Source of the DNA: an uncultured virus (IMG/VR IMGVR_UViG_3300020234_000071)
Lineage: Duplodnaviria > Heunggongvirae > Uroviricota > Caudoviricetes
IMG/VR virus record: IMGVR_UViG_3300020234_000071
DNA: 64,000 nucleotides
Direction: 5' to 3' (one strand)
Under the pieces are notes generated by a model. That model was not told the DNA's origin. It saw nothing but the letters and a program-made list of their open reading frames with translations, and searched no databases. The position numbers were made by a program, and so were the translations under genes. Each line of letters opens with the position of its first letter. Positions within the stretch are counted from its first letter, which is position 1. Of the stretch, positions 2,590-64,000 are shown piece after piece.

Positions 2590-3069
2590 TTAATATGCTT
2601 CGTATCCTGTCCAACCTAATTTGATACGCTTTCGAATTCCGTTGTCTGTTATGCCAAGTGCCTTCCCTGCATCTACACAGGATTCATATAAAATCCCTGC
2701 GGCTAAAACTGGTCGTGCTGCGTAACAGTTTCCAAATTCCCGTGTTGAACGCTGTCTACCCCGTGCTGACATTTCATCCATGTTGTCCTGATGTGTTCCC
2801 ATGTGTAAATGATCGGGGTTGACACATCTTCGATTGTCACAGTGATGAAGAACCATAAGACCGTTTTTTATCTCCCCGTTAAAAACGAGATAAGAAACTC
2901 TGGAAACCTTCAGTGCGTAATCTGGTATTTTCGGGTATCTGCGAAGATGACAACGGGCATACCCGCTTTGGTCACAAGAAAAATTCCAGTTCCAACATTT
3001 CGTTTTCGAATCGATGGTTGAATTTTTCTTGATGTAATCTCTTACATCTTCATCAGTCATTTCTTTCAA
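2590..3069 (-). CDS. HNH homing endonuclease with C-terminal NUMOD-like DNA-binding domain
   Basis: CWNW, GY, VLHHCDNRRCVNPDHL.GT..DN motifs; YES..DAGKALGI. Confidence 0.9.
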   Translation of the reverse strand: MKEMTDEDVRDYIKKNSTIDSKTKCWNWNFSCDQSGYARCHLRRYPKIPDYALKVSRVSYLVFNGEIKNGLMVLHHCDNRRCVNPDHLHMGTHQDNMDEMSARGRQRSTREFGNCYAARPVLAAGILYESCVDAGKALGITDNGIRKRIKLGWTGYEAY

Positions 3070-3094
3070 AGAACTGCCCCACTAAAAAAGGGTG

Positions 3095-3165
3095 CGAACC
3101 GTGGGGGAATCGAACCCCCGTAATCTGATAGAAAGTCAGGTGAACTACCACTATTCTAACGGTTC
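3095..3165 (-). tRNA. tRNA-Glu (anticodon TTC), CCA not encoded
   Basis: Cloverleaf: acceptor GAACCGT/ACGGTTC, anticodon loop CT-TTC-TA, T arm GGGGG-TTCGATT-CCCCC. Confidence 0.85.
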
Positions 3166-3174
3166 AAAATAGGG

Positions 3175-3291
3175 TGTCAGGTGGCAGGATTTTAACCTGC
3201 TTTCGAAGCATTCTCTCCGCTTCGCCGCACGGGTTCAAACTAATTTAATAGCCACTCCCTTGCGCCCGTTCACACCGGGTTGCACCTAACA
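3175..3291 (-). ncRNA. Atypical tRNA-like RNA (about 117 nt) with 9-bp acceptor, extended anticodon-like arm and long variable arm
   Basis: Stems UGUUAGGUG/CACCUGACA, CCCG/CGGG, CGAAGC/GCUUCG and T arm GCAGG-UUAAAAU-CCUGC. Confidence 0.65.
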
Positions 3292-3304
3292 TAAAAATAT
3301 AATT

Positions 3305-3391
3305 TGGTGGATGTCGTAGAATTCGAATCTACTAGTTTCAAGAACCCTCCCGCTTTACAGGCGGGGGAACTTCCAGTCGTTCATCACATCC
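3305..3391 (-). tRNA. tRNA-Tyr (anticodon GTA), CCA encoded
   Basis: Cloverleaf with CCCGC-CT-GTA-AA-GCGGG, long variable arm, GTAGA-TTCGAAT-TCTAC, ACCA end. Confidence 0.9.
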
Positions 3392-5003: not shown

Positions 5004-5074
5004 CAGATAATTGACAAATAATTTCTGTGTGGTGTATACTTAAGGTATAGAAATTAAACAACACGGAACACGAA

Positions 5075-13747: not shown

Positions 13748-14002
13748 ATGGAGCAAACTAAAATTGAGTCTTTAATAGAGACTAGTACAGATATGGTTGC
13801 AGCCTTTATTATTTCATGGATGGTAATGCTCTGGTTCATTCCTATGGTCTACCCCAATCATGCTTCAACAGTACAATCTGCTTTCGGGGTAGTCTTTATT
13901 TTTACCATGACTTCCTTTATTCGTAGATACCTGACAAGAAGATTTTTTGCACGGGGTTTCCATCTGGTAATTCATAAAATAATATCGAGGTTTTTTATAT
14001 GA
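13748..14002 (+). CDS. Small membrane protein
   Basis: Two hydrophobic helices; ESLIE..T and R.Y..RR.F pattern. Confidence 0.65.
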   Translation: MEQTKIESLIETSTDMVAAFIISWMVMLWFIPMVYPNHASTVQSAFGVVFIFTMTSFIRRYLTRRFFARGFHLVIHKIISRFFI

Positions 14003-14565
14003 AGATAATTGGTATCACAGGAAAAGCGAAATCAGGAAAAGATGAAATGGTAGTTCAGTATTTTAAAAATTCACTTCATCCATTGGCTCAAACACATGCA
14101 TTTGCGGATGCAGTAAAACATTCTGCTGCTGCTTTTTTTAATGAGCCTATCGGCAAGTTCTATGAAAACAAGGATGATATTTCTGAACAGTGGGGAATCA
14201 GTTACCGTGAAATGCTACAAAAGATTGGAACTGACTTTGCGCGGAATATGATTCATGAAGATTTCTGGGTGCAGATGTTGGAAACAAAATTAAAAGGTAT
14301 TCCAGATACTATCAAATTAGTTTTTATTACTGATGTCAGATTCGATAATGAAGCAACTTGGATTCATTCCAAAGGTGGGGCAGTGATCGAATTAATAAGG
14401 GAAGGGCATATACCGTTGGAAGGAATTGAAGCACAGCATTCTTCTGAAGATGGAATTTCTGAAGAGTTGGTTGACTACAGAATACTTAATAATACAAGTG
14501 TTGAAGACCTTGGATTTAAACTTAAAAAATTCTTGGATACAATGGAGATATTGCAGGTAGTTTGA
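13999..14565 (+). CDS. Deoxynucleoside monophosphate kinase
   Basis: IIGITGKAKSGKD, FADAVK, REMLQKIGT, ITDVRFDNE, HSSE. Confidence 0.9.
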   Translation: MKIIGITGKAKSGKDEMVVQYFKNSLHPLAQTHAFADAVKHSAAAFFNEPIGKFYENKDDISEQWGISYREMLQKIGTDFARNMIHEDFWVQMLETKLKGIPDTIKLVFITDVRFDNEATWIHSKGGAVIELIREGHIPLEGIEAQHSSEDGISEELVDYRILNNTSVEDLGFKLKKFLDTMEILQVV

Positions 14566-14655
14566 TACTAAGGTCAAAAAATAAACTGACAAATAATTTC
14601 TAGGTGTGTTATAATAGAATTACGAAATCGAATTTCAGGAGAGACCCGATAGAAA

Positions 14656-14775
14656 ATGAACAATCCAGTAGCTAAATACTCTAATAGGTTTAACAAACCT
14701 GCGACTCACACAGACCGCAAGAAAGCGGTAAAGCGTGGTGCGCGTCCCAAACACAAAAAGAACTATAATGTCTAA
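14656..14775 (+). CDS. Small basic protein (39 aa, MNNPVAKYSNRFNKPATHTDRKK...), absent from the ORF track
   Basis: First ORF after the promoter at 14586, with AGGAG upstream. Confidence 0.6.
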   Translation: MNNPVAKYSNRFNKPATHTDRKKAVKRGARPKHKKNYNV

Positions 14776-15463
14776 ACTGACTTTCGGGGAATTGGTTAAA
14801 AACCAAATGCAAAACCCATCTGATGATGTGGTCAAGGCAGCAGAATATGTGATTCAGTTTGGAAAGCATAAGGGCATGAATTTGTCTATGCTGATGGAAG
14901 AGCAACATAGCTATTGCATGTGGTTAATCAAGCAAGATGAATCCCAGAATTCAAAATTCAATGATGCAGTTCATCATATTAAAATACTTTTCGCTGAAGA
15001 CCACATTCTATATGAAGAGAAAGTTGACGGGGTTGATACTGACAATACTGTTTTTGAAGGTGGGGTGATTGATCTTGGGGCAGAGAATAAGCAGACGGTA
15101 ATGAAGGATTACCATGCTGATAATTTGATCATTGATAAGGGAGTAGTGAAGGTGGACGGGGTTGAAGTAATTGATGGGGATATTATGGTTCTTAATATTG
15201 ATCATGGAAAAACCAAACCTGTTGTGGGTTTAATTATGGGTACTGTCACTGATCTTATGCATCAAGTAGATCAAGGATTGACTTTTGATTTTTCACATGA
15301 AGATATAGATGTATGGTTGGGGTTGGTAAGTAAAGTTGAATTGGGGGAGAATTATTTTGTCATTATTGAAACCCAATATAAATTTGAAGAATCTGATGAA
15401 TCTCACGCACAAAAGATTAAAATGGTAGTGTCTGATTTGAAAAAACTGAAGGGGGTGTTTTAA
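14768..15463 (+). CDS. Hypothetical protein with FGKHKG domain
   Basis: FGKHKG..L......SYC.WL motif; start re-assigned to ATG. Confidence 0.6.
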   Translation: MSKLTFGELVKNQMQNPSDDVVKAAEYVIQFGKHKGMNLSMLMEEQHSYCMWLIKQDESQNSKFNDAVHHIKILFAEDHILYEEKVDGVDTDNTVFEGGVIDLGAENKQTVMKDYHADNLIIDKGVVKVDGVEVIDGDIMVLNIDHGKTKPVVGLIMGTVTDLMHQVDQGLTFDFSHEDIDVWLGLVSKVELGENYFVIIETQYKFEESDESHAQKIKMVVSDLKKLKGVF

Positions 15464-15699
15464 TGCCTAAGCTACTTAGCAAATTACATACGGGAACGGT
15501 AGAGCATACAATTATTTCTCTACTGACTCTTTGCCCCAAGTGTGATGCTTCATCTGATGTTCATGATAATGGAGATTCATTTCATGTTGAATGTCCCAAG
15601 TGTGGGGTGATGGGGTACAGGTACGAAACCGAAAAATTAGCAGTGAGGGATTTTAGAAACCATTATGGTATTCGGAAAATTAAAAAAATTGAGAGTTAG
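15463..15699 (+). CDS. Zn-ribbon protein, Lar (restriction alleviation)-like
   Basis: LCPKC...VECPKCG.......E..AV. Confidence 0.5.
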   Translation: MPKLLSKLHTGTVEHTIISLLTLCPKCDASSDVHDNGDSFHVECPKCGVMGYRYETEKLAVRDFRNHYGIRKIKKIES

Positions 15700-15849
15700 A
15701 AAAGTGTCCAAAGTAATTGATGAATCGGTGGTTACTGACATCTTGATTAAGCATTGGAAAAGGAATGACAGTGCAATGAATTACCTGAACAAGAGATTTC
15801 CTGCGGGGGATGCAACAGGAGATTTTCTAAAGGGGATAATCGAATTACG

Positions 15850-16341
15850 ATGATGAAAGTTGGAAAAAATATTTCACTTCAGTACACCAATAATATTGTG
15901 GCTAACGAAGTTGGTCTTCATTGGGATATGCGGTTGATGAATTTAGCCCTTCACGTTGCGGAATGGAGTAAAGACCCGAAGACAGGAGTGGGGGCAATCA
16001 TTGCAAATGGAAAACGTGATATTGATATTGGGTACAACGGATTCCCAGAAGGAATTTCAGATTTGAAAGAACGGTTAAGCGATTATGATTTGAAACACAA
16101 GTTGGTTATTCATGCTGAAAAAAATGCAATGGATAATTCAACTCGTACTTTGGTGGGCAGAACTTTGTATGTCACCTACCCCCCGTGTGTCCCTTGCACG
16201 GTTAGTATCATAAGCAGAAAATTGGGAAGGGTAGTCTGTTTGAAATCTTCCCCAGAGAAAATGAAAAAGCATCATGTGGATATTGAACTTTCCAAAGAAC
16301 TTTTTATAGAGGCGAAAATTAGATTCGATATATTTGACTAG
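15850..16341 (+). CDS. dCMP deaminase
   Basis: SKDP.T.VGA, GYNGFP, HAEKNA, PCVPC. Confidence 0.92.
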   Translation: MMKVGKNISLQYTNNIVANEVGLHWDMRLMNLALHVAEWSKDPKTGVGAIIANGKRDIDIGYNGFPEGISDLKERLSDYDLKHKLVIHAEKNAMDNSTRTLVGRTLYVTYPPCVPCTVSIISRKLGRVVCLKSSPEKMKKHHVDIELSKELFIEAKIRFDIFD

Positions 16342-16349
16342 GAGGTAAA

Positions 16350-17486
16350 ATGTTTAAATCAAAAATTGCGGGATTACGGGCAAAACTTAAACGATCATTT
16401 AGGGTTATGGCAGACAGTTATCTTGTTCTACATTACCCAGAAGAATTTGCAAAAATAAATGAGCAGAGATTAAATCATAATCAATTTCATTCTGAGGATG
16501 CATCCAAGCTAGTTAGGACTGACAAGTTTTGTTATTGGACAGCAGATAATGGGACAAGTATAGATGCACAATATCCAGTTGTTATAGATTTTGAAAATGA
16601 CTTGTTGTATCTAGCAAAAAATTTGAGTGAAGATGATCTTGTTGGACTAGTTAAAGTTGCGGCTGATGATATGCGGAACGGCAAATGTCATTTTCCTTTT
16701 GAAGATATGCTTATCCATGTTGGGGCATGTGAAACCCCTGATAGTAAAGTTCTTGAAGATGTGTGTATTCGTGTTCGAAATGTGACTAACAATTATATTA
16801 TCGAAGTAGATGAACAAGTAGATACAATGATTGAGATTTCAATGATGCATACTATTTCAGATACAGATTATGAATTTTCAAATAATCAAACTGATATTTA
16901 TATGGCAAGCTGTAAGCCAGAGATAATTGAATTGTTTGAAGATGAAATAATATTGGAACAGAATTTATTGTGGGAAGATAAGATACTAGAGTTTATGTAT
17001 TTAGCTCTTGGGAGAGACCCCACATTAATCAAAAATCTTAATGAGGTTGCTAGAGTTTCGATGATGACTATTGTGGTGTTGTTCTTATTTTTCTACAGAC
17101 ATCAACGGGTTTATTATAAGGAAGTAGAAATTCCTATAGGCATAATCAAGAAAAGAAAAAAGAGAAGTAAGATTCCGTACACTAGATATTTTGTGAGCAG
17201 CATAGGAGATTTTACAAAGACCATTTACACGGAAAGTAGACCTTCAGAAAATCCTGTGAGTGGGGTTGCTATGCATGTTCGAAGGGGGCATTATCAACTC
17301 TGGCCTAACCACAGAAACCTTCCCCACTATCTTCAGAAACGTACTTGGGTTCCTAGTTGTGTTGTGGGAGACCCCAGATATGGAGTTATCATCAGGGACT
17401 ATCTGAGTGACATGACATCAGGGGGAGAAGTGACCAAAGAAAAATTGCAGAAGGAAATTAAGGAACGGGAAATAAAACATGACTGA
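16350..17486 (+). CDS. Hypothetical phage protein with C-terminal HVRRGH motif
   Basis: 378-aa ORF with GGAGG. Confidence 0.7.
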   Translation: MFKSKIAGLRAKLKRSFRVMADSYLVLHYPEEFAKINEQRLNHNQFHSEDASKLVRTDKFCYWTADNGTSIDAQYPVVIDFENDLLYLAKNLSEDDLVGLVKVAADDMRNGKCHFPFEDMLIHVGACETPDSKVLEDVCIRVRNVTNNYIIEVDEQVDTMIEISMMHTISDTDYEFSNNQTDIYMASCKPEIIELFEDEIILEQNLLWEDKILEFMYLALGRDPTLIKNLNEVARVSMMTIVVLFLFFYRHQRVYYKEVEIPIGIIKKRKKRSKIPYTRYFVSSIGDFTKTIYTESRPSENPVSGVAMHVRRGHYQLWPNHRNLPHYLQKRTWVPSCVVGDPRYGVIIRDYLSDMTSGGEVTKEKLQKEIKEREIKHD

Positions 17487-17739
17487 TCATCTTTGGGTTA
17501 GTATAAACAAGGTTGAAGCCTTGACTCAAATCAGGAAGTGGGGTGCTAAGCCTTTGGTTTATAGCTGCCCCCATTACAAGTATTTCAGTACCCATAATCA
17601 TCCGCTGATTAAACACGATAGCAAGAAGAATCAGTTTTTTGGGTCTGAGGATTATCGAAAATTAATGTTAGAAACAGCTTGACAAATATCTTTACATGGT
17701 TCATACTGATAACTCACTTGAAAACTTAGGAGGTTGTAA

Positions 17740-19674
17740 GTGAATTTAATTAATCTTTTTACATCAGGACAAATTGTTTCCAAGTCTACTGTTAATAGTA
17801 ACGGTGGCAAAGGTCACAACCTGATTGAAATGAAAAAGGATGGGCTTAACGTGCCTACTGGTCTGGTTATACCCACTGAGGTTTGTAACCAATACCGCAA
17901 ATCAAATGATGTTGGTAAGGCTCTGATACTTGATCAAGTAATTGATGCAGTTATGGATGCCTTGGACAAACACATCTATCCTGAGTCTGTTCACAAACTT
18001 GTTTCTATCCGTTCCGGTGCGCCAATTTCAATGCCGGGAATGATGGATACCCTTCTGAATGTTGGGGCAGGTTACGAAGACTCTGGATTAGCATCTGACC
18101 TTAAAGCCGATTGTCGTAGACGTTTTGTTGAAATGTATGCGGATGTTGTTATGGGTCACGAAGGAAAAATTAAAGACCCTGTTAAATGGATGAAGACAAT
18201 CAAAAAACACATTCCTGAATTGCAGGATGTTATCCGTAATTCAATTGAAGCAGTTTGGAAATCTTTTGATAATGAGCGTTGTACTCACTATAGAAAGATG
18301 AACAAAATTCCTAACGATATGGGAACTGCTGTAATTATTCAGTCTATGGTTTTTGGAAACTTCAATGATAATTCTGGTTCAGGAGTTATGTTTACTCGTA
18401 ACCCTGATTCTGGTGCGAACAAAATCTTTGGAGACTTCCTTACCAATTGTCAGGGTGAAGATGTTGTTGCGGGTCATATCACTGCCCCCCCGATTTCTGA
18501 AATGAAAAAATGGAACATCGATCTTTATAATGACCTGATCAAAATTGGTGAAGGGCTTGAAAAGAAAAATAAGGATATGCAGGAAATTGAATTCACTATT
18601 GAAGATGGTGAACTGTTTATTCTTCAGACTCGTAATGGTCTGCGGTCTTCGTATGCAGAAATCAGGATTGCTCTTGATCTTCTGGATGAAGGAATCATTG
18701 AAGAGTTGGGTGAAAGAATAACTGATGGGACTTTTATGAAACTTAGGGTTCCTGTTCTTCCCGCTGATTTCAAAAAGAAAGCCATTGCAAAAGGTATTGG
18801 TTCGGGTTACTTCGCTACAGGTAAAGCTGCTTTTTCTGTTAAGGAAGTTATGGATTCTAATGAGCCTACAATTTTGGTTGCTGAAGAAACTACCCCTGAT
18901 GATATTAAGGCAATGGAAAAAGCTGAAGGCATTTTGACCTTCAGGGGTTCAGCTACTTGTCACGCTGCTGTTGTCGCAAGGGGAATGAACAAGCCTTGTG
19001 TTGTGGGTTGTGTTGATGTTGAAGCTGCTTTTGCAGATGCTTCTAATATCTCTAGCAATACTTATGTTTTGATTGATGGTCAAACTGGTGAAGTCTATTT
19101 ATCTGATAAGCCTTTTGATCTTGATTTTTCAACCAACATTCCTGTTGAACTTTTGGGCAGTCTTTTTGAAGTTGCCATTACTCAAGATGATTGGATTATG
19201 GTTGATAACTATGAAGAAGCTTTGAGCCTTGAAGATTACATTTATAAAATTGGGGTTCCCGTTGAAGGTCTGAGTTCTGAAGAACTGGTTTATCTTGCTG
19301 ATCTTTTTGACAAGGTTGTACTTATTAATCCTGAGCGCAATGATAAGGTCAGTGATTTTCTTGGTACTCCTAATCCTGTGGCTATGGAAACAGCCCGTGA
19401 ATTGGATGAAACCATTTGTAATAATCCTGCAATGACCAACGTGTTTTTTGATTCAGGAACTTGGGTCACTGAGCAAGTTGCGAAACCTTATCGGACTATG
19501 GCAGATGTTATGAACCCTGATTTTATTGGATACATTGAAAAGGATTTTATAGATACTGTTATGGGTGATGCTGATACTTTTGAAAAAATCAGTGAACAGT
19601 TAGGATTATCTGCACGGGTTGTTGCAATGGAAAGTGCATTAGGTCTTCTCGAAAAACGAATTAATATAGGTTAG
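17740..19674 (+). CDS. PPDK-like dikinase: ATP-grasp plus phospho-His swivel domains, lacking the pyruvate-binding barrel
   Basis: GGKG.NL, LVSIRSGA..SMPGMMDT.LN, QSMVFGN, GEDVVAG, EFTIE.G.LF.LQTR, ETTPDDI, TCHAAVVAR. Confidence 0.88.
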   Translation: MNLINLFTSGQIVSKSTVNSNGGKGHNLIEMKKDGLNVPTGLVIPTEVCNQYRKSNDVGKALILDQVIDAVMDALDKHIYPESVHKLVSIRSGAPISMPGMMDTLLNVGAGYEDSGLASDLKADCRRRFVEMYADVVMGHEGKIKDPVKWMKTIKKHIPELQDVIRNSIEAVWKSFDNERCTHYRKMNKIPNDMGTAVIIQSMVFGNFNDNSGSGVMFTRNPDSGANKIFGDFLTNCQGEDVVAGHITAPPISEMKKWNIDLYNDLIKIGEGLEKKNKDMQEIEFTIEDGELFILQTRNGLRSSYAEIRIALDLLDEGIIEELGERITDGTFMKLRVPVLPADFKKKAIAKGIGSGYFATGKAAFSVKEVMDSNEPTILVAEETTPDDIKAMEKAEGILTFRGSATCHAAVVARGMNKPCVVGCVDVEAAFADASNISSNTYVLIDGQTGEVYLSDKPFDLDFSTNIPVELLGSLFEVAITQDDWIMVDNYEEALSLEDYIYKIGVPVEGLSSEELVYLADLFDKVVLINPERNDKVSDFLGTPNPVAMETARELDETICNNPAMTNVFFDSGTWVTEQVAKPYRTMADVMNPDFIGYIEKDFIDTVMGDADTFEKISEQLGLSARVVAMESALGLLEKRINIG

Positions 19675-19678
19675 ACTC

Positions 19679-20104
19679 ATGACACTTTTTTTGATGATAG
19701 CCTATCTTATGGGATTAACCTGCCCCAAATGTGGGGGTTTATCTTGGATTAAGTTTGAAGAAGATTCAGTTGTACAACATTGTGTTTGTGGATTGAATAG
19801 GTTTCTGTACCTTAAAATAGATGGTACTACCCTTACCAGAGTACCCGTTAAATTAAATACGGTGGTGTTGCCTGTCAGGGGAAGTCAGCTTTCACAGATT
19901 TTAGGTTGCTTGGTTTTGTTGGGTCAATTAACTTCCCAACAGATTGCTAGGCAATTGAGTATCACGGTAGACAAGGCAACAACCAATCTTTCTATTTTGC
20001 GGAAGCGGGGATTGATAACAGCTTTGGAAGATCGTAAAGGCAGGTTGGGGGGTTCCTTGTGGATTACTCATGCTGTGGTAATTAAAAAATGGAACGGGGG
20101 ATAA
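19679..20104 (+). CDS. Zn-ribbon plus winged-helix protein (candidate transcription regulator)
   Basis: CPKC..CVC; TSQQIARQL.I......NLS.LRKRGLI. Confidence 0.65.
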   Translation: MTLFLMIAYLMGLTCPKCGGLSWIKFEEDSVVQHCVCGLNRFLYLKIDGTTLTRVPVKLNTVVLPVRGSQLSQILGCLVLLGQLTSQQIARQLSITVDKATTNLSILRKRGLITALEDRKGRLGGSLWITHAVVIKKWNGG

Positions 20105-20107
20105 GAC

Positions 20108-20395
20108 ATGGCTTTAGTTCTTGGAATGAATTTAGAAAAGGATAATGAAATCTGGGTGGGTGATTTATTGATAACATTGGATAAGATTTTAAATCCTACC
20201 CAAACTCAAATTACAGTTCATGGTAGATTTTTGACTGAACAAAAAGTGATAAATAATATGAGCTATGTTGGTATTACTACCGATGTCAAAATGATGTTAG
20301 GAACAGATACAAACAGGGATGGTTTTTGTAGGGTGTTGGTTGAAGCCCCGAGAAGTATTACAATTAACCGTGGGCAGAAAAAACGTAACGGGTAA
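20108..20395 (+). CDS. CsrA/RsmA-like RNA-binding protein (extended)
   Basis: MALVL....D.EI.VGD.LI N-terminus and RVLVEAPRSITINR C-terminus resemble CsrA strands. Confidence 0.5.
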   Translation: MALVLGMNLEKDNEIWVGDLLITLDKILNPTQTQITVHGRFLTEQKVINNMSYVGITTDVKMMLGTDTNRDGFCRVLVEAPRSITINRGQKKRNG

Positions 20396-20398
20396 ATC

Positions 20399-20884
20399 AT
20401 GTTGCACAAATTTAGCAAGGGAGCCAAAGAAGATTTGTTGGCTTTGCACAATGAACATACTTATGCAGATGTAGTTTCTTACATCAGGAATGGAAGCCCC
20501 TGTGATCATAAAGTAGGGAACCTAAGATTCAACAATATTGTTGTTGATCGAAATGATAGGGAAATTGTTGGGGTGACACTTTTTCATTTGGATAGGTATG
20601 CACGGTATTTTAATTTTAGTTGTAACGTGTGTTTTGATTCACACACAATTGAAGTGGGAGACCCTTGTAGCTTTTGTGATGGGGCAGGATGTAAAGACTG
20701 TAAGGAAGGGTTGGATTTTAAATTAATAGCTTGTCCAAATTGTACAGCTAAACAAATTGAAGGGGATAGAAATGAATGGTCAGATAGAAACAAAATTGTT
20801 AGGGCGCAAAGTCACGGTAATGGGAGGCCCATACCGAGAAAAGCCCGTGGGTATCAAAGGCGTAAAACTCGCATCCGAAATTAA
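20399..20884 (+). CDS. Cys-rich hypothetical protein (DnaJ-like CxxCxGxG)
   Basis: CSFCDGAGCKDC. Confidence 0.55.
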   Translation: MLHKFSKGAKEDLLALHNEHTYADVVSYIRNGSPCDHKVGNLRFNNIVVDRNDREIVGVTLFHLDRYARYFNFSCNVCFDSHTIEVGDPCSFCDGAGCKDCKEGLDFKLIACPNCTAKQIEGDRNEWSDRNKIVRAQSHGNGRPIPRKARGYQRRKTRIRN

Positions 20885-21302
20885 TGCGGGTTGTGCTGTT
20901 CGGTTAGATATTCCTGATTTTGGAATTCCCACAGTACATGCAGTTGATGATGCTATTTACCATACTTTAAAAATTCTGTGTGAAGATGGGGTGATCTATC
21001 TTGGGTGCATGGGTGGCATTGGCAGAACAGGAATGTTCATGGCTCTGCTGATTAAGACAATTGGTATTCTAAATATACAAGCTGAAGAAAAAACCCTGTG
21101 GTACAAGATCAAGAATTTCTTGGGCTATGCCGTTTCACCCTATTTGGGAATGAGAAATTTCCCTGTGGAATGGGTGCGGGATGAATACCTTTCCACTGCG
21201 GTTGAAACTGATGAACAATATTCTTTTGTCAGTCATTATGACCCAACAGAAATGTTGGATATTCGTGATCGAATTTCTAATTGTATGGAAAGTGTCAGGT
21301 AA
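20772..21302 (+). CDS. Protein-tyrosine/dual-specificity phosphatase-like
   Basis: IPDF acid loop, CMGGIGRTG (CX5R), AVET..Q. Confidence 0.85.
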   Translation: MNGQIETKLLGRKVTVMGGPYREKPVGIKGVKLASEINAGCAVRLDIPDFGIPTVHAVDDAIYHTLKILCEDGVIYLGCMGGIGRTGMFMALLIKTIGILNIQAEEKTLWYKIKNFLGYAVSPYLGMRNFPVEWVRDEYLSTAVETDEQYSFVSHYDPTEMLDIRDRISNCMESVR

Positions 21303-21403
21303 ATTAATTTGATATTAAGGTCAAATAAATTGACAAATAATTTTTACCTGTGTTATACTTAGAGTATAGAAATTAAATGTCATCAAATTTTAGGAGAGAC
21401 CTG

Positions 21404-21553
21404 ATGCCAACTCACGAAGAAATAGAAGCATTCATTATGAAGTCTGAAGCTCATGAATTATATGAGCACTACGAAGCAGTTGATGCGGCTGAAGAAGCTG
21501 CTGATGCTCAAGCTGCTGCGTATGAACTTGATCATTTTGCGTATCACAACTAG
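21404..21553 (+). CDS. Small highly acidic protein (49 aa), absent from the ORF track
   Basis: MPTHEEIEAF...AYELDHFAYHN after the promoter at 21330 and AGGAG. Confidence 0.6.
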   Translation: MPTHEEIEAFIMKSEAHELYEHYEAVDAAEEAADAQAAAYELDHFAYHN

Positions 21554-21561
21554 GAGGTTTT

Positions 21562-22572
21562 ATGATTCTCAGAGAAGTAAAAAATTCAATGCTCTTTAAA
21601 GCTTGTGAATACAGCAAGCAGAAAATGAGTATGGAAAAATTTATTTCCGTTAATAACGGGACAATGGTTCAACCTGAAGAAGATGTTATCGGGTTCTATC
21701 TTGGTGCTCACGTTATGGGTGTCGTTGAATCTAAATATGGGGTTGATACTGAACTTCCTGAAGACGTTGAAGAATTGGTTAGAACCCATCATACAAATAT
21801 GGAAAATGTTTTTTTCCGTATCTTCACTTATATCCTTTTAATTTCCATTGGCGAATCCCGTCACGGAAAAATTAGTTCCAAAACTGCAACCATCGATAAA
21901 CAATATGGTAGTGATGTCAGAAATTTTGGAACCACCATCAACGGTAAGAAAAATCGCTCAGGGTCAAGAAACGAATTTCTGAATTCTGAGAGAGACCTTC
22001 TGGATTTCTCCCGCTATTGTGATTGGATGTTTGTGCATTGTTTTGTAGGGATGGGTTCTTACGGTGGGCAAAAATGGAAAAACATTAGCCAGAAAATTAC
22101 TCAAGTTCTGGAAGGCGAAATTTCACCTTTCACTATGGTTGATATTGCGTGGGCTTTGGTTCACAACACAGGTTCAATCTTTAACAAGAACACAATTTAT
22201 CATCATGAAATTCATGGTGCGGGATTGACTCAATTGCTTGATATGCAACGTGGGGGTGCTATCCCTTCTTTGATCATGCATCTTGATAAATATAATTCTG
22301 AGTGTTCAGGATTCTCTATTAACGTCAATCTAATAAATAACTTTAAAGATGCGGTTACTTCTGCTGCTAAAGTTTTGGGTGAAGATTTTTATTCTTATGT
22401 TTCTCCTTCTGCTATTAATGAAGCGGGGGCATTATCGACAAGCACATTTAAGAAAGCGAAAACTGCCAAGCCTTCTGAAACTGAAAAAGGTGAAGCAACA
22501 GACTTTGAAATAGATGGTCTGATTGACTTGGGCGTTATGAAGATTCAAACCCTAAAACGGAAGGGGGCATAA
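21562..22572 (+). CDS. Hypothetical protein (YGG.KW..I, HNTGSIFNK motifs)
   Basis: 336-aa ORF with AGGAGG. Confidence 0.7.
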   Translation: MILREVKNSMLFKACEYSKQKMSMEKFISVNNGTMVQPEEDVIGFYLGAHVMGVVESKYGVDTELPEDVEELVRTHHTNMENVFFRIFTYILLISIGESRHGKISSKTATIDKQYGSDVRNFGTTINGKKNRSGSRNEFLNSERDLLDFSRYCDWMFVHCFVGMGSYGGQKWKNISQKITQVLEGEISPFTMVDIAWALVHNTGSIFNKNTIYHHEIHGAGLTQLLDMQRGGAIPSLIMHLDKYNSECSGFSINVNLINNFKDAVTSAAKVLGEDFYSYVSPSAINEAGALSTSTFKKAKTAKPSETEKGEATDFEIDGLIDLGVMKIQTLKRKGA

Positions 22573-22573
22573 T

Positions 22574-23260
22574 ATGTCTAAAGTAGCTGACCTATGGAAA
22601 AATAAAGGTTCCTCCAAAAAAGGAAACAACTTTAAGAAACATGTTTCTTGTTGGACTACCCACCCTGTTTATAAAATAGGTGATTATGAAATTACTGGTG
22701 GAAGCTGTACCAGTAGTTACCCTGATGTGGATTTGTTTATTGCTTTGGATAGTTCGGGCAAAAAAGGTAAACGGTCTTACCCGTGGAATGATGGGGTAGA
22801 TATTTATTTTAAAATCGCAGATATGGGCGTACCTAAAGATTTAAAGGATTTCAAAAAACTTCTGTCTTACACTGCTAAGGCAATGAAGGCAGGGAAGAAA
22901 GTTTTTGTGGGTTGTATCGGTGGGCATGGTCGAACAGGTTTGTTCCTTGCTGCCCTGACTAAAGTTATGATTGGGGATGAAGATGCAACTAATACAGTGC
23001 GGGAAAATTATTGTCACAAGGCTGTTGAATCGAAGGAACAGATTGATTGGTTGAACAAGCATTTTGGAATTAAAAAAGTCAAAGGCACTAAAACTAGTTT
23101 TAAATCAGTGTGGGGCAATGATGCAAAAACAAGTTCATCCCCTAGTTATGCTTGGGGAACTGATTTGACTGAAGATTGGATTACGGGGAAGGTAACGGAT
23201 AACAAGTCCCAAAAATATTTATGTGCTAAAGGCACTTCACTAATCGTAAATAATGATTGA
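22574..23260 (+). CDS. Second protein-tyrosine/dual-specificity phosphatase-like protein
   Basis: IADMGVP, CIGGHGRTG (CX5R), AVES..Q. Confidence 0.85.
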   Translation: MSKVADLWKNKGSSKKGNNFKKHVSCWTTHPVYKIGDYEITGGSCTSSYPDVDLFIALDSSGKKGKRSYPWNDGVDIYFKIADMGVPKDLKDFKKLLSYTAKAMKAGKKVFVGCIGGHGRTGLFLAALTKVMIGDEDATNTVRENYCHKAVESKEQIDWLNKHFGIKKVKGTKTSFKSVWGNDAKTSSSPSYAWGTDLTEDWITGKVTDNKSQKYLCAKGTSLIVNND

Positions 23261-26958: not shown

Positions 26959-27045
26959 AATAAATGTAAATAAGTGCAAATAATCCTGACAAATAATTCT
27001 AGCTGTGCTATACTTAAGGTATACAAACAAACAAGGAAACACGAA

Positions 27046-37294: not shown

Positions 37295-37726
37295 ATGACC
37301 ACTACAACAGAAGATGTCATTACTGCCCTGAAGGAAGACATTGAACTTCAAATAAATACTGTATCTGAGTTGGAAAATAAATCTATCTATGTGTATGACC
37401 CTGCCCAATTAAGTTCAGCACATACAAGAATAGCTTTGCCTTGTGTGATTTTTCATTATGCGGGAATGCGACAAGGCATTAAAAAACATGATGTTGTTTT
37501 TGATATATATCTTATAGCAAAAGCAGAGTCATTAAATCAAATTAAGGGAACCAAAGTAGTTCCTACTGCAACGGAAATTTTACAAAGATTAAGAAAAGCA
37601 ATGGCTTGTAATACGGCTGCTACTAAGAGAAATTGGAATCTTGAATCTGAGCAACCTAGTTTTGGGGTAGATGACAAACTAATTTATCGGCAAAGATGGG
37701 TGACTGCCTATCAAATAATACTTTGA
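37295..37726 (+). CDS. Probable tail terminator
   Basis: Synteny and size. Confidence 0.55.
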   Translation: MTTTTEDVITALKEDIELQINTVSELENKSIYVYDPAQLSSAHTRIALPCVIFHYAGMRQGIKKHDVVFDIYLIAKAESLNQIKGTKVVPTATEILQRLRKAMACNTAATKRNWNLESEQPSFGVDDKLIYRQRWVTAYQIIL

Positions 37727-38848: not shown

Positions 38849-39163
38849 ATGACCCTACACGCTATACCAGAACGTCCAATTTGCAAAACTTGTGAGACCA
38901 ATCCTGTAACCCGTAAGGGTTCAAGTGAAAAAGGATTTCCGCTTTGGGCTAACGAGTGTGCAGGATGCCGAAAGAATAGAACGGCACATAGACTTAAGAA
39001 GGATGTATGTGAGCTTTGTGGGTTTACTGCGTTGAATAAATGTCAGATGGATTTAGACCATATTGACGGGGATTCAACTAACGATGACCCAAAGAATTTG
39101 CAAACTCTATGTTCCAATTGCCACAGGTTAAAGACCTTCTGTAATCGGGATTGGCAATCCTAA
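38849..39163 (+). CDS. HNH endonuclease inserted in the tail module
   Basis: CELCG, DLDHIDG...N....NLQTLC.NCH. Confidence 0.88.
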   Translation: MTLHAIPERPICKTCETNPVTRKGSSEKGFPLWANECAGCRKNRTAHRLKKDVCELCGFTALNKCQMDLDHIDGDSTNDDPKNLQTLCSNCHRLKTFCNRDWQS

Positions 39164-59482: not shown

Positions 59483-59995
59483 ATGAAAGACACAAATTTG
59501 ATTGTAAAAAAGTGTCCAAATTTTAGGTGGTATGAAGTTTGGAAATCATCAACTGCTGATAGGATTGGAATTGATAATGTTACGGATGATGAAATTATTA
59601 TTCAGAATGTTCAGAACTTGGTGACTAATTTACTGCAACCATTGCGGGATGAAGTAGGCCCGATGATGCCCCAATCTTGGTTCAGGGGTGAAGCACTGGA
59701 AAAAGTTTTAACTCAGAGAGCTTTCGGTGCTTGGTGTGCCAAGAAAGAAAAGCAAATTAATTTTCAATCGTGGGCTGAATATTTTAAATTAAAATCCCAC
59801 CCTAAAGGTTCAGCTATAGATGTTGAAGTTTCCAGTATGTCCAATAATGATTTGTACGATCTGGTTAAAAAAGATTTTGAATTTGATCAGCTAATCAGGG
59901 AGTTCCCAAAGAAGGGGGTTCCTGATTCTGGGTGGGTTCATATTTCTTGGGATTCCGATAAGGATAATCGGGGGCAATCTTTTACAATACCGTAG
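59483..59995 (+). CDS. Endolysin, peptidase M15 family
   Basis: S.TA.R.GIDN, LQPLRD, S.FR, SHPKG.A.D, FDQLI.E, WVHIS. Confidence 0.9.
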   Translation: MKDTNLIVKKCPNFRWYEVWKSSTADRIGIDNVTDDEIIIQNVQNLVTNLLQPLRDEVGPMMPQSWFRGEALEKVLTQRAFGAWCAKKEKQINFQSWAEYFKLKSHPKGSAIDVEVSSMSNNDLYDLVKKDFEFDQLIREFPKKGVPDSGWVHISWDSDKDNRGQSFTIP

Positions 59996-60403: not shown

Positions 60404-60784
60404 ATGTTCAAATATGTATCAATGATTTTGGGTGTAATATTAATGTGGGCTTTTTTTCTCTTGTGGATGAATGAGAAAGAAATTGGTTCACTGACTTTAA
60501 AGAATCAACAACTCACAACTGAACTTGATGTTTCAGAAGGAAATCTTGCCACTGCTGAAATCTCAAATAAACTTCAGTCTGATCAGGTAGCAGCATTCCA
60601 ACAGCAAATAATTAAGATTAGTGCGGAGCGCGAAGAATCCAGAAAGCAAGTTGAGTACGTGCGGAACCTTTTTATGGGTCATGACTTTCGAAGACTTCTT
60701 GAAAAGAAACCGGGACTCATTGAAAAACGAATGATCAAAGCTACAGCAAAAGTTTTGAAGGAGCTAGAAGAAGCTACGCAATGA
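60404..60784 (+). CDS. i-spanin (Rz-like)
   Basis: N-terminal TM, coiled coil, KPGLIE. Confidence 0.75.
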   Translation: MFKYVSMILGVILMWAFFLLWMNEKEIGSLTLKNQQLTTELDVSEGNLATAEISNKLQSDQVAAFQQQIIKISAEREESRKQVEYVRNLFMGHDFRRLLEKKPGLIEKRMIKATAKVLKELEEATQ

Positions 60785-61161
60785 AATACGCTATTTTATT
60801 TTTGACCTTAGTATCACTTTCTGGGTGTGGGATATTCACTAAGGAAAAGATTGTGATCAAAAATGTTCCTGTCTATGTTCCTGTGGTTTGTCCTGATGCC
60901 CAAAAAGTTACATCGATTAGTCCCAGACCTATTAGACCTAGAGCAATTCAAGATGTCGCAGGAATTTGGTGGGTGGCATTAACCCCAGAAGATTATGAAA
61001 ATCTGGCAATCAACACAAAGGAAACAATCAGATTTATTATTGATCAAAGGGGAGTGGTTCAGTATTATCGGGAATGCATAATTACTTTTAATAATAGTAT
61101 TGATAAATTGAAAAACGATTCTGACAAAATTCGGGAACAGATTGATGCCGACTCCGGGTAA
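60781..61161 (+). CDS. o-spanin (Rz1-like lipoprotein)
   Basis: Lipobox LSGC; Pro-rich; YENLA.N...RFI..Q. Confidence 0.78.
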   Translation: MKYAILFLTLVSLSGCGIFTKEKIVIKNVPVYVPVVCPDAQKVTSISPRPIRPRAIQDVAGIWWVALTPEDYENLAINTKETIRFIIDQRGVVQYYRECIITFNNSIDKLKNDSDKIREQIDADSG

Positions 61162-61218
61162 ATCACTTCCACAACAACCCAAAAAGTTTTTGAGGAAACC
61201 AGTGAAGAGAAATAAATA

Positions 61219-61581
61219 ATGGTCAAAATAAGAGATGACCAAGGACATTTCACAACAGCTTCAAAGGTGATTGCTATGATTGCGGGAACAGTAACTTTGC
61301 TGATTGCGTTGGGTACAACAGCATTCCAAATTGATGAACGTCACGCGAATACTCTTGAAGTTGCGGGGCAGTTCAAAGCTATTCAGGATTCACGGCAAGC
61401 ATCTGATCTGCAAAATCAATTAGCCCTGATTCAGATTAGGCTAGATATTCTTGAAGATAGATTGTTTCGGGAACGTCAACAAACTACTCCTAGTCAAACG
61501 TATATTAATAAATTGGAAAATGATATTCAAAGATTGATAACACAGTCTGATCAAATCTATGAACTATGGATTCAACAGTGA
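61219..61581 (+). CDS. Membrane-anchored coiled-coil hypothetical protein
   Basis: TM segment plus heptads. Confidence 0.6.
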   Translation: MVKIRDDQGHFTTASKVIAMIAGTVTLLIALGTTAFQIDERHANTLEVAGQFKAIQDSRQASDLQNQLALIQIRLDILEDRLFRERQQTTPSQTYINKLENDIQRLITQSDQIYELWIQQ

Positions 61582-61701
61582 TTGACAAAGATAGTGCGTA
61601 GGTTATAATTAAATCTGGGAAGTTACTGCTTCCTATATTCGTGTTTTGATTGTTTGTGTGTGAAGCCTCCCTTCAGAAAATCCTGTTGGGGGGCTTTTTT
61701 G
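61582..61701 (+). ncRNA. Candidate sRNA-1 with promoter (TTGACA-16-TATAAT), 5' hairpin, U/G-rich seed and terminator
   Basis: No ORF; seed AUAUUCGUGUUUUGAUUGUUUGUGU is complementary to early-gene leaders. Confidence 0.65.
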
Positions 61702-61725
61702 TGGGTTCACAATAACCCACAACAG

Positions 61726-61840
61726 TTGACAATAAAAAAATCAATGGGATAATGATCATGCCTATGCCTCACAGAACTATCCCCCTGTGAATGGGTGCAA
61801 GCCCTGTCTTCAACTGCCCTTGATGATGGGGCTTATTTTT
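61726..61840 (+). ncRNA. Candidate sRNA-2 with promoter (TTGACA-16-GATAAT) and two hairpins with C-rich loops
   Basis: Loops AACUAUCCCC and ACUGCCCU are exact complements of 63136-63145 and 63051-63058. Confidence 0.65.
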
Positions 61841-61849
61841 GGGGGGCAT

Positions 61850-61880
61850 AAAAAAGGGAGCCTGTCAGGACTCCCAAAAA
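61850..61880 (-). terminator. Intrinsic terminator for the minus-strand early genes
   Basis: GGGAGTCCTG-A-CAGGCTCCC-TTTTTT on the minus strand. Confidence 0.7.
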
Positions 61881-61921
61881 CAACACACGAGTAAATCTTT
61901 AAACTGGAATTTAAAATTCCA

Positions 61922-62406
61922 TTACCGATCTAACCATGTCCACGGGTCTGCTTCATAAAGTTCTTCATCAGATAGTTCTTCATGTTTTGTGTTGGTGGCT
62001 CTGGTCTCATTGTCTTCAATCATGTTATCGATTAAAGCCATTGCATCTTTTTTAGATTCAGCATCCCAAGGGTAGTGATTCATCCCTTCAAGTTTGATCA
62101 TCCAACCAGTGTCATCAACGGCAAGTTCATATCCCCGATAGGAATATTCCCCTGTCTTAATTCGTGTTGCTCTATTCATATCGTTTACTTTATCCAAGTT
62201 CCATTATTGTCAGTAGTCAGAACCATGTTTTTAAGTTTGTAACCATCAGCAGAAACTACCACTACTGAAGACCAATAAAATTTTCCAAGGTCTCCCAACA
62301 TCGGGCAGTATGTGGGTTTGTGATTCCAGTAGACCCGAAGATTTTTCAAAGAAGGGTTTGCCTTTTTGATCATTCGTTTTGCTACAGCAAGTGTTGGTTT
62401 TTTCAT
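61922..62406 (-). other. Two minus-strand early CDSs (62185-62406 and 61922-~62179)
   Basis: Under the promoter at 62442-62470 with AACACGATATG leader. Confidence 0.65.
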
Positions 62407-62573
62407 ATCGTGTTCATCTCTTTGTTTGTTTTCGTACTATAAGTATAGCATAGTTAGAAATATTTGTCAGGTTTATTTGCACTTAATATCAATTTATTTA
62501 TCGAAAAGACCTTGCTTTTATTTGTCAAGGTGCTATACTTAAGGTATACAAACAAACAAAGAGACACACGAAA

Positions 62574-63002
62574 ATGAATACAAATAAAGTTGAATTAAGA
62601 TTTGAAGCAGGATGTGAAGAAGATTGTGGAAGGGCTTTTGAAGTTGCTGATATAATCCATGCCCCTGAAGATTCGATACATGCAAAGATGGAATCTGAAG
62701 ATGGTACTTACTTTGTAATGAGGGTTGTATTGAATGACCCGATGAACACAGACATCAATGAGTTGGTCAAGAAAATTGACTACCTGATGAACCTTTAAAC
62801 GAGACACGAAATGGCAAAACCAAACAAGATGGGAATGAGTGCAAAGCAATTGATGCGGTCTCGCCGCGCTCGATTTGGTATGCCTAAACCTAAGCCTCTT
62901 GGTGATGATTGGGAAGCCTTTTATGACAAGATGGAAAAGGGTGATATGTCTGTTGAGCAAATGAAATCTGAAATGGAAAAGTTGTTGGATAAGAAATCCT
63001 AA
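62574..63002 (+). other. Two early CDSs (62574-62798, 62811-63002)
   Basis: Divergent promoter at 62512-62539; ACACGAA leaders. Confidence 0.65.
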
Positions 63003-63146
63003 TATCTGCTTGACAAATATTTTAAAGTAGTGTAAGCTTAACACATAAGTAGGGCAGTGCTTTCGTTAAATTCCTATCTATTGGTAAGGGAGCGTTTTAC
63101 TTTTCTCTGCTCAAGCAGTAAGCTACAAATAACTAGGGGATAGTTA

Positions 63147-64000
63147 ATGATTAAAAAGGCAGTGAGTGGTTTGATACCACTCATATCTGTGAGGTCAACT
63201 GACCTTCTTCACATTGAGTTTGTTCTGCGGGGTTTGTTTCCCAAGCATAATGTTATGGCTTTGGGTTCCAAGTTCGTTGAGAGTGAAGAGTTGACCCCCC
63301 TATATTATTCCGTTGGAACTTCAAAAGAAAATTCCCTGAACGATCTTTATAATGATGCTGAGCAAAATGAATACTCAGTAATATTTATCAATCATGACCC
63401 AGACCCAAGATTAATGGAGTGTGGGGAATTAGTCCCAGATGAAAAAACAATTCATCAAATGCTTAAGGGAGAAATCCCAACTAAAATTCTGAAAGAATCT
63501 GTTGCCTATCTCAAGGGTTTGACAGTTCAACATATCAAACAAACACTTTCCCTTTGCTCTATCTACTACGATCAGATTTCCGTGGAGAGCATCCGCAAAA
63601 CCAAAGAAAGATTATTCATTCATCAAACGGGAATTACAAAAGTTGACCCTGAGACCCCATTTTATTTTGGTGGAAATAATTTGTCTTTGTGGGTAGCTGA
63701 AAATAAACCTTATATGTTTGCGGATGTCGATCATAGATTAGTTCCCAAAGGGGTTTTGATGTACGGGGAATCTGGGACAGGTAAAACTGAATTTTCAAAA
63801 TATGTTGCGCGGGAATGGGGGCTATCTTTATTTCTGTTGGATGTTAATTCCATGCTATCGAAATGGCAGGGAGAAGCAGAGCATCATCTGAACCAAGCAC
63901 TTGTAACATTGGATAAGGAAAGCCCGTGCATAGTTTTGTTTGATGAAGTGGAAAAGCTTTTCATGAACAATAGCGAAAACGATACAAGCCAAAGATTGTT
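63147..64000 (+). CDS. AAA+ ATPase (Ycf46/CDC48-like), 3' partial, absent from the ORF track
   Basis: Manual translation: PKGVLMYGESGTGKT, SKWQGEAE, PCIVLFDEVEK; in frame with ATG 63147. Confidence 0.88.
   Translation, partial: MIKKAVSGLIPLISVRSTDLLHIEFVLRGLFPKHNVMALGSKFVESEELTPLYYSVGTSKENSLNDLYNDAEQNEYSVIFINHDPDPRLMECGELVPDEKTIHQMLKGEIPTKILKESVAYLKGLTVQHIKQTLSLCSIYYDQISVESIRKTKERLFIHQTGITKVDPETPFYFGGNNLSLWVAENKPYMFADVDHRLVPKGVLMYGESGTGKTEFSKYVAREWGLSLFLLDVNSMLSKWQGEAEHHLNQALVTLDKESPCIVLFDEVEKLFMNNSENDTSQRL

Follow-up and report, generated by a model that had tools for sequence, protein, structure and literature searches.

A two-hairpin small RNA gene of an uncultured siphophage as a candidate regulator of an AAA ATPase gene

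The stretch of DNA analysed here (the window; 64,000 nucleotides) represents positions 1-64000 of an 85,458-bp metagenome contig, IMG/VR record IMGVR_UViG_3300020234_000071. The phage DNA has a G + C content of about 40% and derives from an uncultured siphophage lineage seen in many marine-sediment metagenomes. The late genes are followed on the plus strand by two tandem promoter-terminator units, designated sRNA-1 and sRNA-2 (sRNA, small RNA), and further downstream by an AAA ATPase gene, which opens the replication module (Table 1). A sequence-only reading of the window had suggested that the two hairpin loops of sRNA-2 are complementary to two sites in the leader of the ATPase mRNA, one of them at the ribosome-binding site (RBS). 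Structure prediction, homology searches and comparison with related phages were used to follow up this suggestion.

The sRNA-2 gene and the ATPase leader

Close relatives, with ATPases 86-100% identical, were recovered by protein-anchored scans as two IMG/VR contigs and eleven metagenome contigs. They gave six readable sRNA/leader pairs: the window itself together with L006, L009, L011, L012, L002 (the same as G003), and the G002 type (L001 plus L003, L007 and L008). L006 is positions 59147-67998 of the contig that contains the window and is 100% identical to it over the ATPase match and over the sRNA-2, leader and sRNA-1 queries. Three more contigs (L005, L013 and L014) provided the leader only, the sRNA not being on the contig, and the totals were four distinct sRNA-2 sequences and nine distinct leaders.

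The sigma-70-type promoter of sRNA-2 matches the consensus at 11 of 12 positions and has a TG upstream of the -10 box. The predicted transcript folds into two hairpins with a minimum free energy of -30.2 kcal/mol (z = -4.5; none of 200 shuffled sequences was as stable), the second hairpin being an intrinsic terminator. The sequence-only reading, which had described a stand-alone promoter followed by an ORF-less RNA of about 80 nt with two hairpins (ORF, open reading frame), was therefore correct in its coordinates and in the architecture. It had also given loop 2 as 8 nt (61813-61820); exact complementarity to the leader does extend over all eight, but the loop proper is the 6-nt CUGCCC (61814-61819), and the outer two nucleotides form its closing pair (A61813-U61820).

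All four distinct sRNA-2 variants were predicted to have the same two-hairpin architecture, with z values from -4.35 to -4.75. The -35 and -10 boxes are kept in each of them while the spacer in between varies. Compensatory changes were found in the stem of hairpin 1 (A-U to U-A in G002) and in the stem of hairpin 2 (C-G to G-C); in L002 the hairpin 2 stem is largely rewritten and still forms a 16-bp helix, closed by the loop CCUGCCC. Alignment of the variants gave 62 invariant positions out of 84, including 10/10 of loop 1 and 6/6 of loop 2. The sole ATG frame inside sRNA-2 has 10 codons and its ATG is lost in L011 and L012, leaving no conserved ORF. Because the promoter boxes are kept around a variable spacer, the stems covary and no ORF is conserved, sRNA-2 looks like a real, structured, stand-alone small-RNA gene; in promoter, Rho-independent terminator and lack of a conserved ORF it resembles the generic trans-encoded base-pairing sRNA. 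In contigs from four sequencing runs, among the differences listed, none fell in 61632-61865 or at the two target sites except an insertion behind 61840; some bins had no cover and contigs cannot show transcript ends, and this comparison was not counted as evidence.

The ATPase leader, about 100 nt long, follows a putative early promoter that was read from the sequence and is conserved in 9/9 leader variants. Its -10 box (TAAGCT) matches the consensus at only 3 of 6 positions, and it was not listed by the promoter scan. The leader contains a conserved hairpin in whose lower stem AAGUAGGGC pairs with GUUUUACUU, and the upstream target site is part of the 5′ strand of this stem. One-sided C-G/U-G changes were seen in the upper stem, and no double compensatory changes were counted. 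Lying in the 5′ strand of the lower stem and the internal loop, the upstream site has a predicted unpaired probability of 0.37-0.49, and blocking it costs about 4-6 kcal/mol of predicted leader structure.

The RBS lies in a hairpin of its own (TAACTA-GGGGA-TAGTTA in the DNA), as had been noted earlier and as was predicted in all nine leaders. Target site 1 consists of the loop of this hairpin, which contains the Shine-Dalgarno (SD) sequence, and its 3′ arm; the hairpin ends one base before the AUG, and 6 nt separate GGGGA from the AUG. Across the nine leaders 65 of 120 aligned positions are invariant, among them 10/10 of site 1. Pairings of the leader-hairpin loop with the RBS, or of the U-rich run with the SD sequence, were also considered; inspection by eye found at most 5-6 weak, non-conserved pairs, and they were rejected.

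A strong hairpin was further observed in ATPase codons 6-12 (63163-63183, plus strand), which the scan listed as a minus-strand terminator-like site. Synonymous changes on both sides of the stem preserve it, with GUGGU...ACCAC in the window and GUGGA...UCCAC in L011 and L012, and it may belong to the structure of the translation-initiation region.

Table 1 Features of the sRNA-2 region and of the rest of the window
Feature	Position	Strand	Remarks
tRNA-Glu and tRNA-Tyr	3094-3391	-	Adjoin HNH endonuclease gene (2590-3069, -)
Leaders with ACACGAAATG	near 5042, 11024, 27013, 62540, 62778	+	
Leader with ACACGAAATG	near 62439	-	
Endolysin	59483-59995		
Two Rz-like spanins	60404-61161		
Last late ORF	61219-61581		Followed by two tandem promoter-terminator units on the plus strand (sRNA-1, sRNA-2)
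sRNA-1 unit	61582-61700	+	Promoter TTGACA-16 nt-TATAAT at 61582-61609, 12/12 consensus; terminator ending near 61700
sRNA-2 promoter	61726-61753	+	-35 TTGACA 61726-61731; 16-nt spacer; TG-extended -10 GATAAT 61748-61753
sRNA-2 predicted transcript	61760-61840	+	About 81 nt; both ends placed from promoter and terminator
sRNA-2 loop 1 (anti-SD)	61775-61784	+	10 nt, AACUAUCCCC; in hairpin 1
sRNA-2 hairpin 2	61799-61840	+	Intrinsic terminator with U tail
Minus-strand terminator	61856-61875	-	Beyond sRNA-2; followed by two small minus-strand ORFs
Divergent early-promoter region	near 62440-62550		Followed by two small plus-strand ORFs, then promoter 63010-63038
Putative early promoter of ATPase/replication operon	63010-63038	+	-35 TTGACA 63010-63015; 17-nt spacer; -10 TAAGCT 63033-63038
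Leader hairpin	63047-63102	+	Conserved, followed by U-rich run; lower stem 63047-63055 with 63094-63102; upper stem 63059-63064 with 63088-63093
Upstream target site	63051-63058	+	AGGGCAGU, complementary to loop 2; abuts leader hairpin
RBS hairpin	63130-63146	+	UAACUA-GGGGA-UAGUUA; contains target site 1, GGGGAUAGUU (63136-63145); predicted in 9/9 leader variants
AAA ATPase gene	63147-64000	+	ATG at 63147; 394 amino acids in full contig, first 284 codons in window

Complementarity in the window and in relatives

Loop 1 of sRNA-2 is the exact complement of GGGGATAGTT in the SD region of the ATPase gene, and loop 2, taken over 61813-61820, is the exact complement of AGGGCAGT in the upstream site. 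Both matches had been reported in the sequence-only reading, and their sequences and coordinates were confirmed. The window has just two exact copies of GGGGATAGTT, namely the complement of loop 1 and the RBS, and three of AGGGCAGT, namely the complement of loop 2, the upstream site and 37322-37329 (minus strand). The ATPase leader is the sole 110-nt stretch on either strand of the window with an exact 10 + 8 match, the next best being 8 + 6, and the order of its two sites is colinear-antiparallel to the loops, as needed for simultaneous binding. When pairs of a 10-mer and an 8-mer with the same spacing were drawn at random from the window, a score of 18 was reached in 2 of 400 (about 0.5%), a figure that stands before allowing for the number of hairpins inspected in the sequence-only reading. 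A naive duplex scan that included the stem flanks placed G-rich sites above the ATPase sites and was replaced by a scan with the loops only, covering 128 kb, in which the RBS was the best loop-1 site at -16.2 kcal/mol, followed by a site at -15.4 kcal/mol. The evidence from this single genome that the match exceeds chance is good, not overwhelming. A further pairing that had been proposed, of loop 2 with the RBS of an HNH gene (3063-3082, minus strand; -14.9 kcal/mol), is at chance level, being one of about ten such sites.

Comparison with the relatives found that loop 1 and site 1 are complementary in 6/6 pairs, and that the upstream site is fully complementary to a loop of its own sRNA in 5/6. 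Counted over leaders, the upstream site is complementary to an sRNA-2 loop in eight of nine: five carry AGGGCAGT, two AGGGCAGGT and one, that of L009, GGGGATAGTT. In G002 (89 kb, complete) and in G003, GGGGATAGTT was found solely at the sRNA and at the ATPase RBS. Across the pairs the second site presents one matched length change, one swap to the loop-1 target and one loss.

The swap was found in L009: its sRNA does not differ from that of the window (100% identity), whereas the aligned part of its leader shares only 74%. Where other leaders have the loop-2 site, immediately next to the leader hairpin, this one contains a second GGGGATAGTT, giving L009 three copies of the 10-mer in all; complementarity of this extra copy to loop 1 is exactly 10 nt, and its flanks are unlike those of the RBS copy. 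Without selection for pairing with sRNA-2, such a replacement would be very difficult to account for. The length change was found in L002, in which an extra C lengthens loop 2 to 7 nt (CCUGCCC) and an extra G lengthens the site (AGGGCAGGT), leaving the whole loop still paired; we take this as modest evidence for the pairing.

Complementarity of loops and targets is seen in the relatives, but covariation in the strict sense was not seen for loop 1 and site 1, which are invariant, and the G002 lineage has no upstream site. Similarly, the proposal of two contacts with the leader agrees with the match of both loops in most lineages, but the second contact is not universal. The upstream site had also been placed near the 5′ end of the mRNA. 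This holds for the window only if promoter 63010-63038 is used, but not where a small ORF of about 60-65 codons is located between the promoter and the ATPase leader, as in L002 (3705-3900), L005 (about 74-270) and L009 (about 1980-2180). This ORF is absent from the window (63039-63046), L011-L014 and G002. Because it intervenes in three relatives, what is conserved is the location of the upstream site at the foot of the conserved leader hairpin, and it is this location, not nearness to the mRNA 5′ end, that defines the site.

Searches for further relatives with the system were negative. Alignment of the ATPase to viral contigs returned only the two known contigs, and a broader alignment, among the matches listed, only relatives of about 30% identity. 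Motif scans with 14 and 15 nt gave 89 and 38 loci, those beyond the known contigs being chance matches when checked by blastn; the two known contigs were likewise the only ones found with a back-translated YMFxDVDxRLxPKG pattern, and no prophage copies were found in 185,579 species genomes. Intermediate relatives of the ATPase (46-84% identical) exist as proteins. In six phages or contigs with distant versions of the ATPase (Vibrio phage 1.215.A, RcZahn, DLP5, L111, L112 and L115) neither the sRNA region nor an anti-RBS match of at least 9 nt was found within about 4 kb upstream. Since distant phages with the ATPase-initiator-DnaB order are without the sRNA region and the anti-RBS element, sRNA-2 is, among the phages compared, specific to this clade.

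Proposed regulation and competing explanations

From the sequence features, fold, conservation and complementarities observed, we infer that sRNA-2 is transcribed, pairs with the leader in vivo and represses, with a role for the second site. Specifically, sRNA-2 is, with moderate confidence, a phage-encoded trans-acting antisense RNA of about 81 nt that blocks the ATPase RBS and represses translation. Its transcription would start at a sigma-70-type promoter of its own, located where the lysis/late block ends, and the RNA probably also occurs in the 3′ end of late read-through transcripts. The C-rich loop 1 would contact the SD GGGG exposed in the RBS hairpin loop and extend into the 3′ arm, forming 10 bp (about -16 kcal/mol) and displacing the AU-rich 5′ arm, whose AACUA is also the sequence with which loop 1 begins. 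Coverage of the SD sequence by site 1, with 6 nt between GGGGA and AUG, is the standard geometry for translational repression by an sRNA. Pairing at site 1 would keep the 30S subunit off and so repress the first cistron of the replication module, possibly with polar effects on the downstream replication genes, which encode a 240-amino acid protein, an O-like initiator and a DnaB-like helicase.

In most lineages loop 2, and in L009 loop 1, would make a further contact at the foot of the leader hairpin, about 80 nt upstream of the first; this would probably raise binding rate or affinity (avidity) and open the lower stem. The "kissing-loop" label that had been given to the interaction fits the RBS contact but not the second site, which lies in a stem. 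Since the strong host-type promoter is located at the 3′ end of the late/lysis block, sRNA-2 might be expected to accumulate with genome copy number and late read-through, resulting in negative feedback on, or late shut-off of, the replication operon. A role in immunity like that of c4 or CI is unlikely, because integrase, ParB and S24-type repressor, the three families tested, were not found in a complete relative.

Several observations weigh against regulation of the ATPase leader by sRNA-2. Among the sequencing runs containing the region there is no RNA run. When one mismatch is allowed, the count of the loop-1 10-mer is at chance (4 found versus 4.05 expected); by energy each loop has near-equal alternative sites, the gap for loop 1 being 0.8 kcal/mol and the loop-2 site being one of about ten near -15 kcal/mol in the loop-only scan. 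The invariance of loop 1 and site 1 in 6/6 pairs leaves the main pairing without covariation, and as all relatives are close (ATPase at least 86% identical) conservation may partly reflect short divergence; in the six distant phages and contigs above the system was not found within about 4 kb upstream. The compensation in L002 is weak, because a 7-bp core is common to all lineages and a window-type loop also fits an L002-type site. In the G002 lineage (L001, L003, L007 and L008) loop 2 is unchanged and the upstream site is absent from a leader that starts practically at the hairpin, the only other AGGGCAGT being located about 8 kb downstream, at chance level. Finally, the first hairpin of sRNA-1 contains an exact 9-nt match (TTACTGCTT, 61623-61631) to the ATPase leader (AAGCAGTAA, 63113-63121) of which the sRNA-1 side is not kept in L002 or G002; it is probably a chance or strain-specific match, and therefore matches of such size can arise by chance.

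These points could also be accommodated if sRNA-2 were a real RNA and the ATPase leader not its functional target, the matches being due to chance or inheritance and the loops acting on other SD-like sequences of host or phage, or having another role. In favour of this explanation are the several near-equal sites per loop, the single-genome significance of only about 0.5% before the hairpins inspected are counted, the absence of covariation between loop 1 and site 1, the absence of site 2 in G002, and the non-conserved 9-mer of sRNA-1 as an example of a chance match. It does not account for the gain in L009 of a second exact 10-nt loop-1 target precisely where the loop-2 site is located, for the joint change of loop and site length in L002, or for a 10-mer that in two further genomes is unique to the sRNA and the RBS and whose site 1 lies exactly on the SD sequence; we regard it as unlikely.

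Alternatively, sRNA-2 might act on the same leader through the hairpin and U-run, by termination or attenuation, RNase processing or mRNA stability, or might even activate the gene. Regardless of the loop to which it is complementary, the upstream site is always directly next to the hairpin; it is the 5′ strand of the lower stem that pairs with the U-run, and the predicted cost of blocking it (see above) agrees with such an effect. A hairpin followed by GUUUUACUUUU also resembles an attenuator, and in L002, L005 and L009 it is located between the small ORF and the ATPase gene. However, with an upper stem of only 6 bp (two G-U in the window) and a 22-nt loop the hairpin would be a poor intrinsic terminator, and it was not listed by the scan; the sRNA does not invade the upper stem, and blocking site 2 did not consistently change predicted RBS accessibility. 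The G002 lineage is without the upstream site yet keeps the RBS site, and the 10-bp match is centred on the SD sequence, all of which makes action through the hairpin improbable compared with direct blockage of the RBS.

That there is no riboregulator at all, the unit being a terminator or insulator block of the late operon and GGGGATAGTT and AGGGCAGT being DNA or RNA motifs of a phage protein that recur in both orientations, is very improbable: the unit does directly follow the last late ORF and another promoter-terminator unit, both hairpins could terminate late transcription, and L009 has three 10-mer copies, but the spacer between the conserved -35 and -10 boxes varies, the motif coincides exactly with the loop of a covarying hairpin, the target-side motifs lie in the transcribed sense strand with one on the SD sequence, and the matched one-base length change in L002 fits base pairing better than a protein site.

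Blockage of the ATPase RBS by sRNA-2 might be part of a wider control. In sRNA-1, directly upstream, the first hairpin is variable and a G/U-rich single-stranded stretch (61634-61662) is conserved; the unit also has a terminator and is itself conserved in L002, G002, L009 and L012. Its single-stranded stretch resembles an antisense sequence to the A/C-rich leader, with ACACGAAATG at its end, that precedes at least six genes; the best non-self duplex of sRNA-1 in the window is with the leader at 27007, and that at 62539 is also in the top ten. The tandem units at 61582-61840 could accordingly be pictured as an RNA-only control module, in which sRNA-1 acts on early-gene leaders (...AAACAAACAA..ACACGAAAUG, at least six copies) and sRNA-2 on the replication-operon leader, an idea that rests on a partial analysis of sRNA-1 and that we consider rather doubtful. 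If it were true, both RNAs would rise with genome copy number and late read-through and shut off translation of early and replication genes, giving an RNA counterpart of T4 RegA/RegB, or plasmid-style copy-number feedback, in a probably virulent phage.

Genomic setting and known systems

Structural genes of siphovirus type form one module of the window, which also contains a lysis cassette and genes of nucleotide metabolism. The ATPase has a classical AAA domain (PF00004, E = 3e-27; phrog_10401 was also matched), its nearest solved relatives being AAA domains of the Cdc48/p97/VAT type, and a family-specific N-terminal half. Downstream of it, the genes for the 240-amino acid protein and the O-like initiator (HTH_36, phrog_428/678) are followed by two small ORFs and the DnaB-like helicase gene. 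The order ATPase-initiator-DnaB is also found in Vibrio phage 1.215.A and VHS1-like phages, Rhodobacter phage RcZahn and Stenotrophomonas phage DLP5; identities to these distant cultured relatives are about 33% for the ATPase and about 50% for the major capsid protein. Of lysogeny genes, three families (integrase, ParB and S24 repressor) were looked for, and none was found in either G002 (100% complete) or G003. The window and its relatives also differ in small early genes (61921-62185 and 62552-63004), which were gained or lost in contigs from other metagenomes, as seen at the joints; by its gene content the early region is mosaic.

A tRNA/tmRNA scan of the window found two tRNAs only, near 3.1-3.4 kb. 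A second HNH endonuclease gene (38849-39163, plus strand) is an insertion that separates the major tail protein gene from a phrog_5260 tail protein gene. The nucleotide-metabolism cluster (13999-23260, plus strand) comprises a dNMP kinase, a dCMP deaminase, a large phrog_18609 'kinase' and two ORFs that match parts of a thymidylate-synthase family, and suggests that the phage DNA may contain a modified pyrimidine.

As read from its sequence, sRNA-2 would be a trans-acting base-pairing sRNA with a two-site contact, belonging to no known family. An Rfam cmscan of 60500-64000 (both strands, E up to 10) gave six weak unrelated matches, of which none overlaps 61726-61845 and none is C4, in agreement with the earlier statement that sRNA-2 is unrelated in sequence to C4 and CI. 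No blastn match to 61500-63300 was obtained in GenBank phages. A description of sRNA-2 was found neither in Rfam nor in GenBank phages nor in the full-text literature, where a metagenomic phage was hardly findable and which gave known systems only.

The review PMC12197685 describes c4 of P1 and P7 as a phage RNA of about 80 nt, two loop-exposed segments of which pair with two separated leader sites, one around the RBS. The two loops of sRNA-2 likewise face two leader sites, one at the RBS. sRNA-2 differs in having no Rfam C4 match, in a promoter and terminator of its own, which lie 1.3 kb upstream of the target and are separated from it by genes on the opposite strand, in a target that belongs to the replication module, and in coming from phages in which the tested lysogeny families were not found. 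In contrast, c4 arises by processing of a transcript of the operon that also contains its target, and its control of icd/ant underlies prophage immunity; its pairing segments are a′/b′ and a2/b2, and the CI RNA of P4 works similarly.

In OxyS-fhlA and RNAIII-rot a trans-encoded sRNA contacts two distant regions of one mRNA with two hairpin loops (C-rich in RNAIII). One contact of OxyS-fhlA and of RNAIII covers a G-rich SD sequence in a hairpin loop, and translation is arrested. A two-site interaction of RNAIII with coa in Staphylococcus aureus is described in PMC2837412. With OxyS-fhlA and RNAIII-rot/coa, sRNA-2 shares two loops complementary to two sites of one mRNA, one of which overlaps the SD sequence. 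However, OxyS and RNAIII are chromosomal regulators of stress or quorum sensing with many targets, whereas sRNA-2 is phage-encoded and apparently dedicated to one phage leader; and while in that type both targets are in hairpin loops, site 1 of sRNA-2 is a loop plus a 3′ arm and site 2 is in a stem.

Structured RNAs with loop-initiated pairing also control the synthesis of plasmid replication proteins through the mRNA leader, as CopA/CopT of R1, the RNAI type of IncB/IncI and the pT181 countertranscripts, one of which works through a leader terminator. Loop-initiated pairing, the leader of a replication gene and a dose that should follow genome copy number would be common to these and to sRNA-2, but CopA, RNAI and the countertranscripts are cis-encoded and fully complementary, whereas the sRNA-2 gene lies in trans, 1.3 kb from the leader and on its strand, and only 10 + 6-9 nt are complementary. 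In phage T4, post-transcriptional shut-off of early genes at the RBS is brought about by RegA, a translational repressor protein, and RegB, an SD-cleaving nuclease; sRNA-2 may share this niche, but RegA and RegB are proteins, not RNA, and the likeness is an analogy only.

Phage-encoded sRNAs with a known target are few, and most of those come from temperate phages, according to PMC12197685. The mechanism proposed for sRNA-2 is conventional and would not itself be new. Here, sequence alone yields a testable sRNA-target pair whose target opens the replication module, and sRNA-2 can be considered a credible, testable phage riboregulator. If the proposal is true, it would represent RNA-based control of replication-gene expression in a phage without visible lysogeny genes, and a compact two-contact riboregulator whose natural variants, the site swap and the change of loop length, could be used to study how such RNA pairs evolve.

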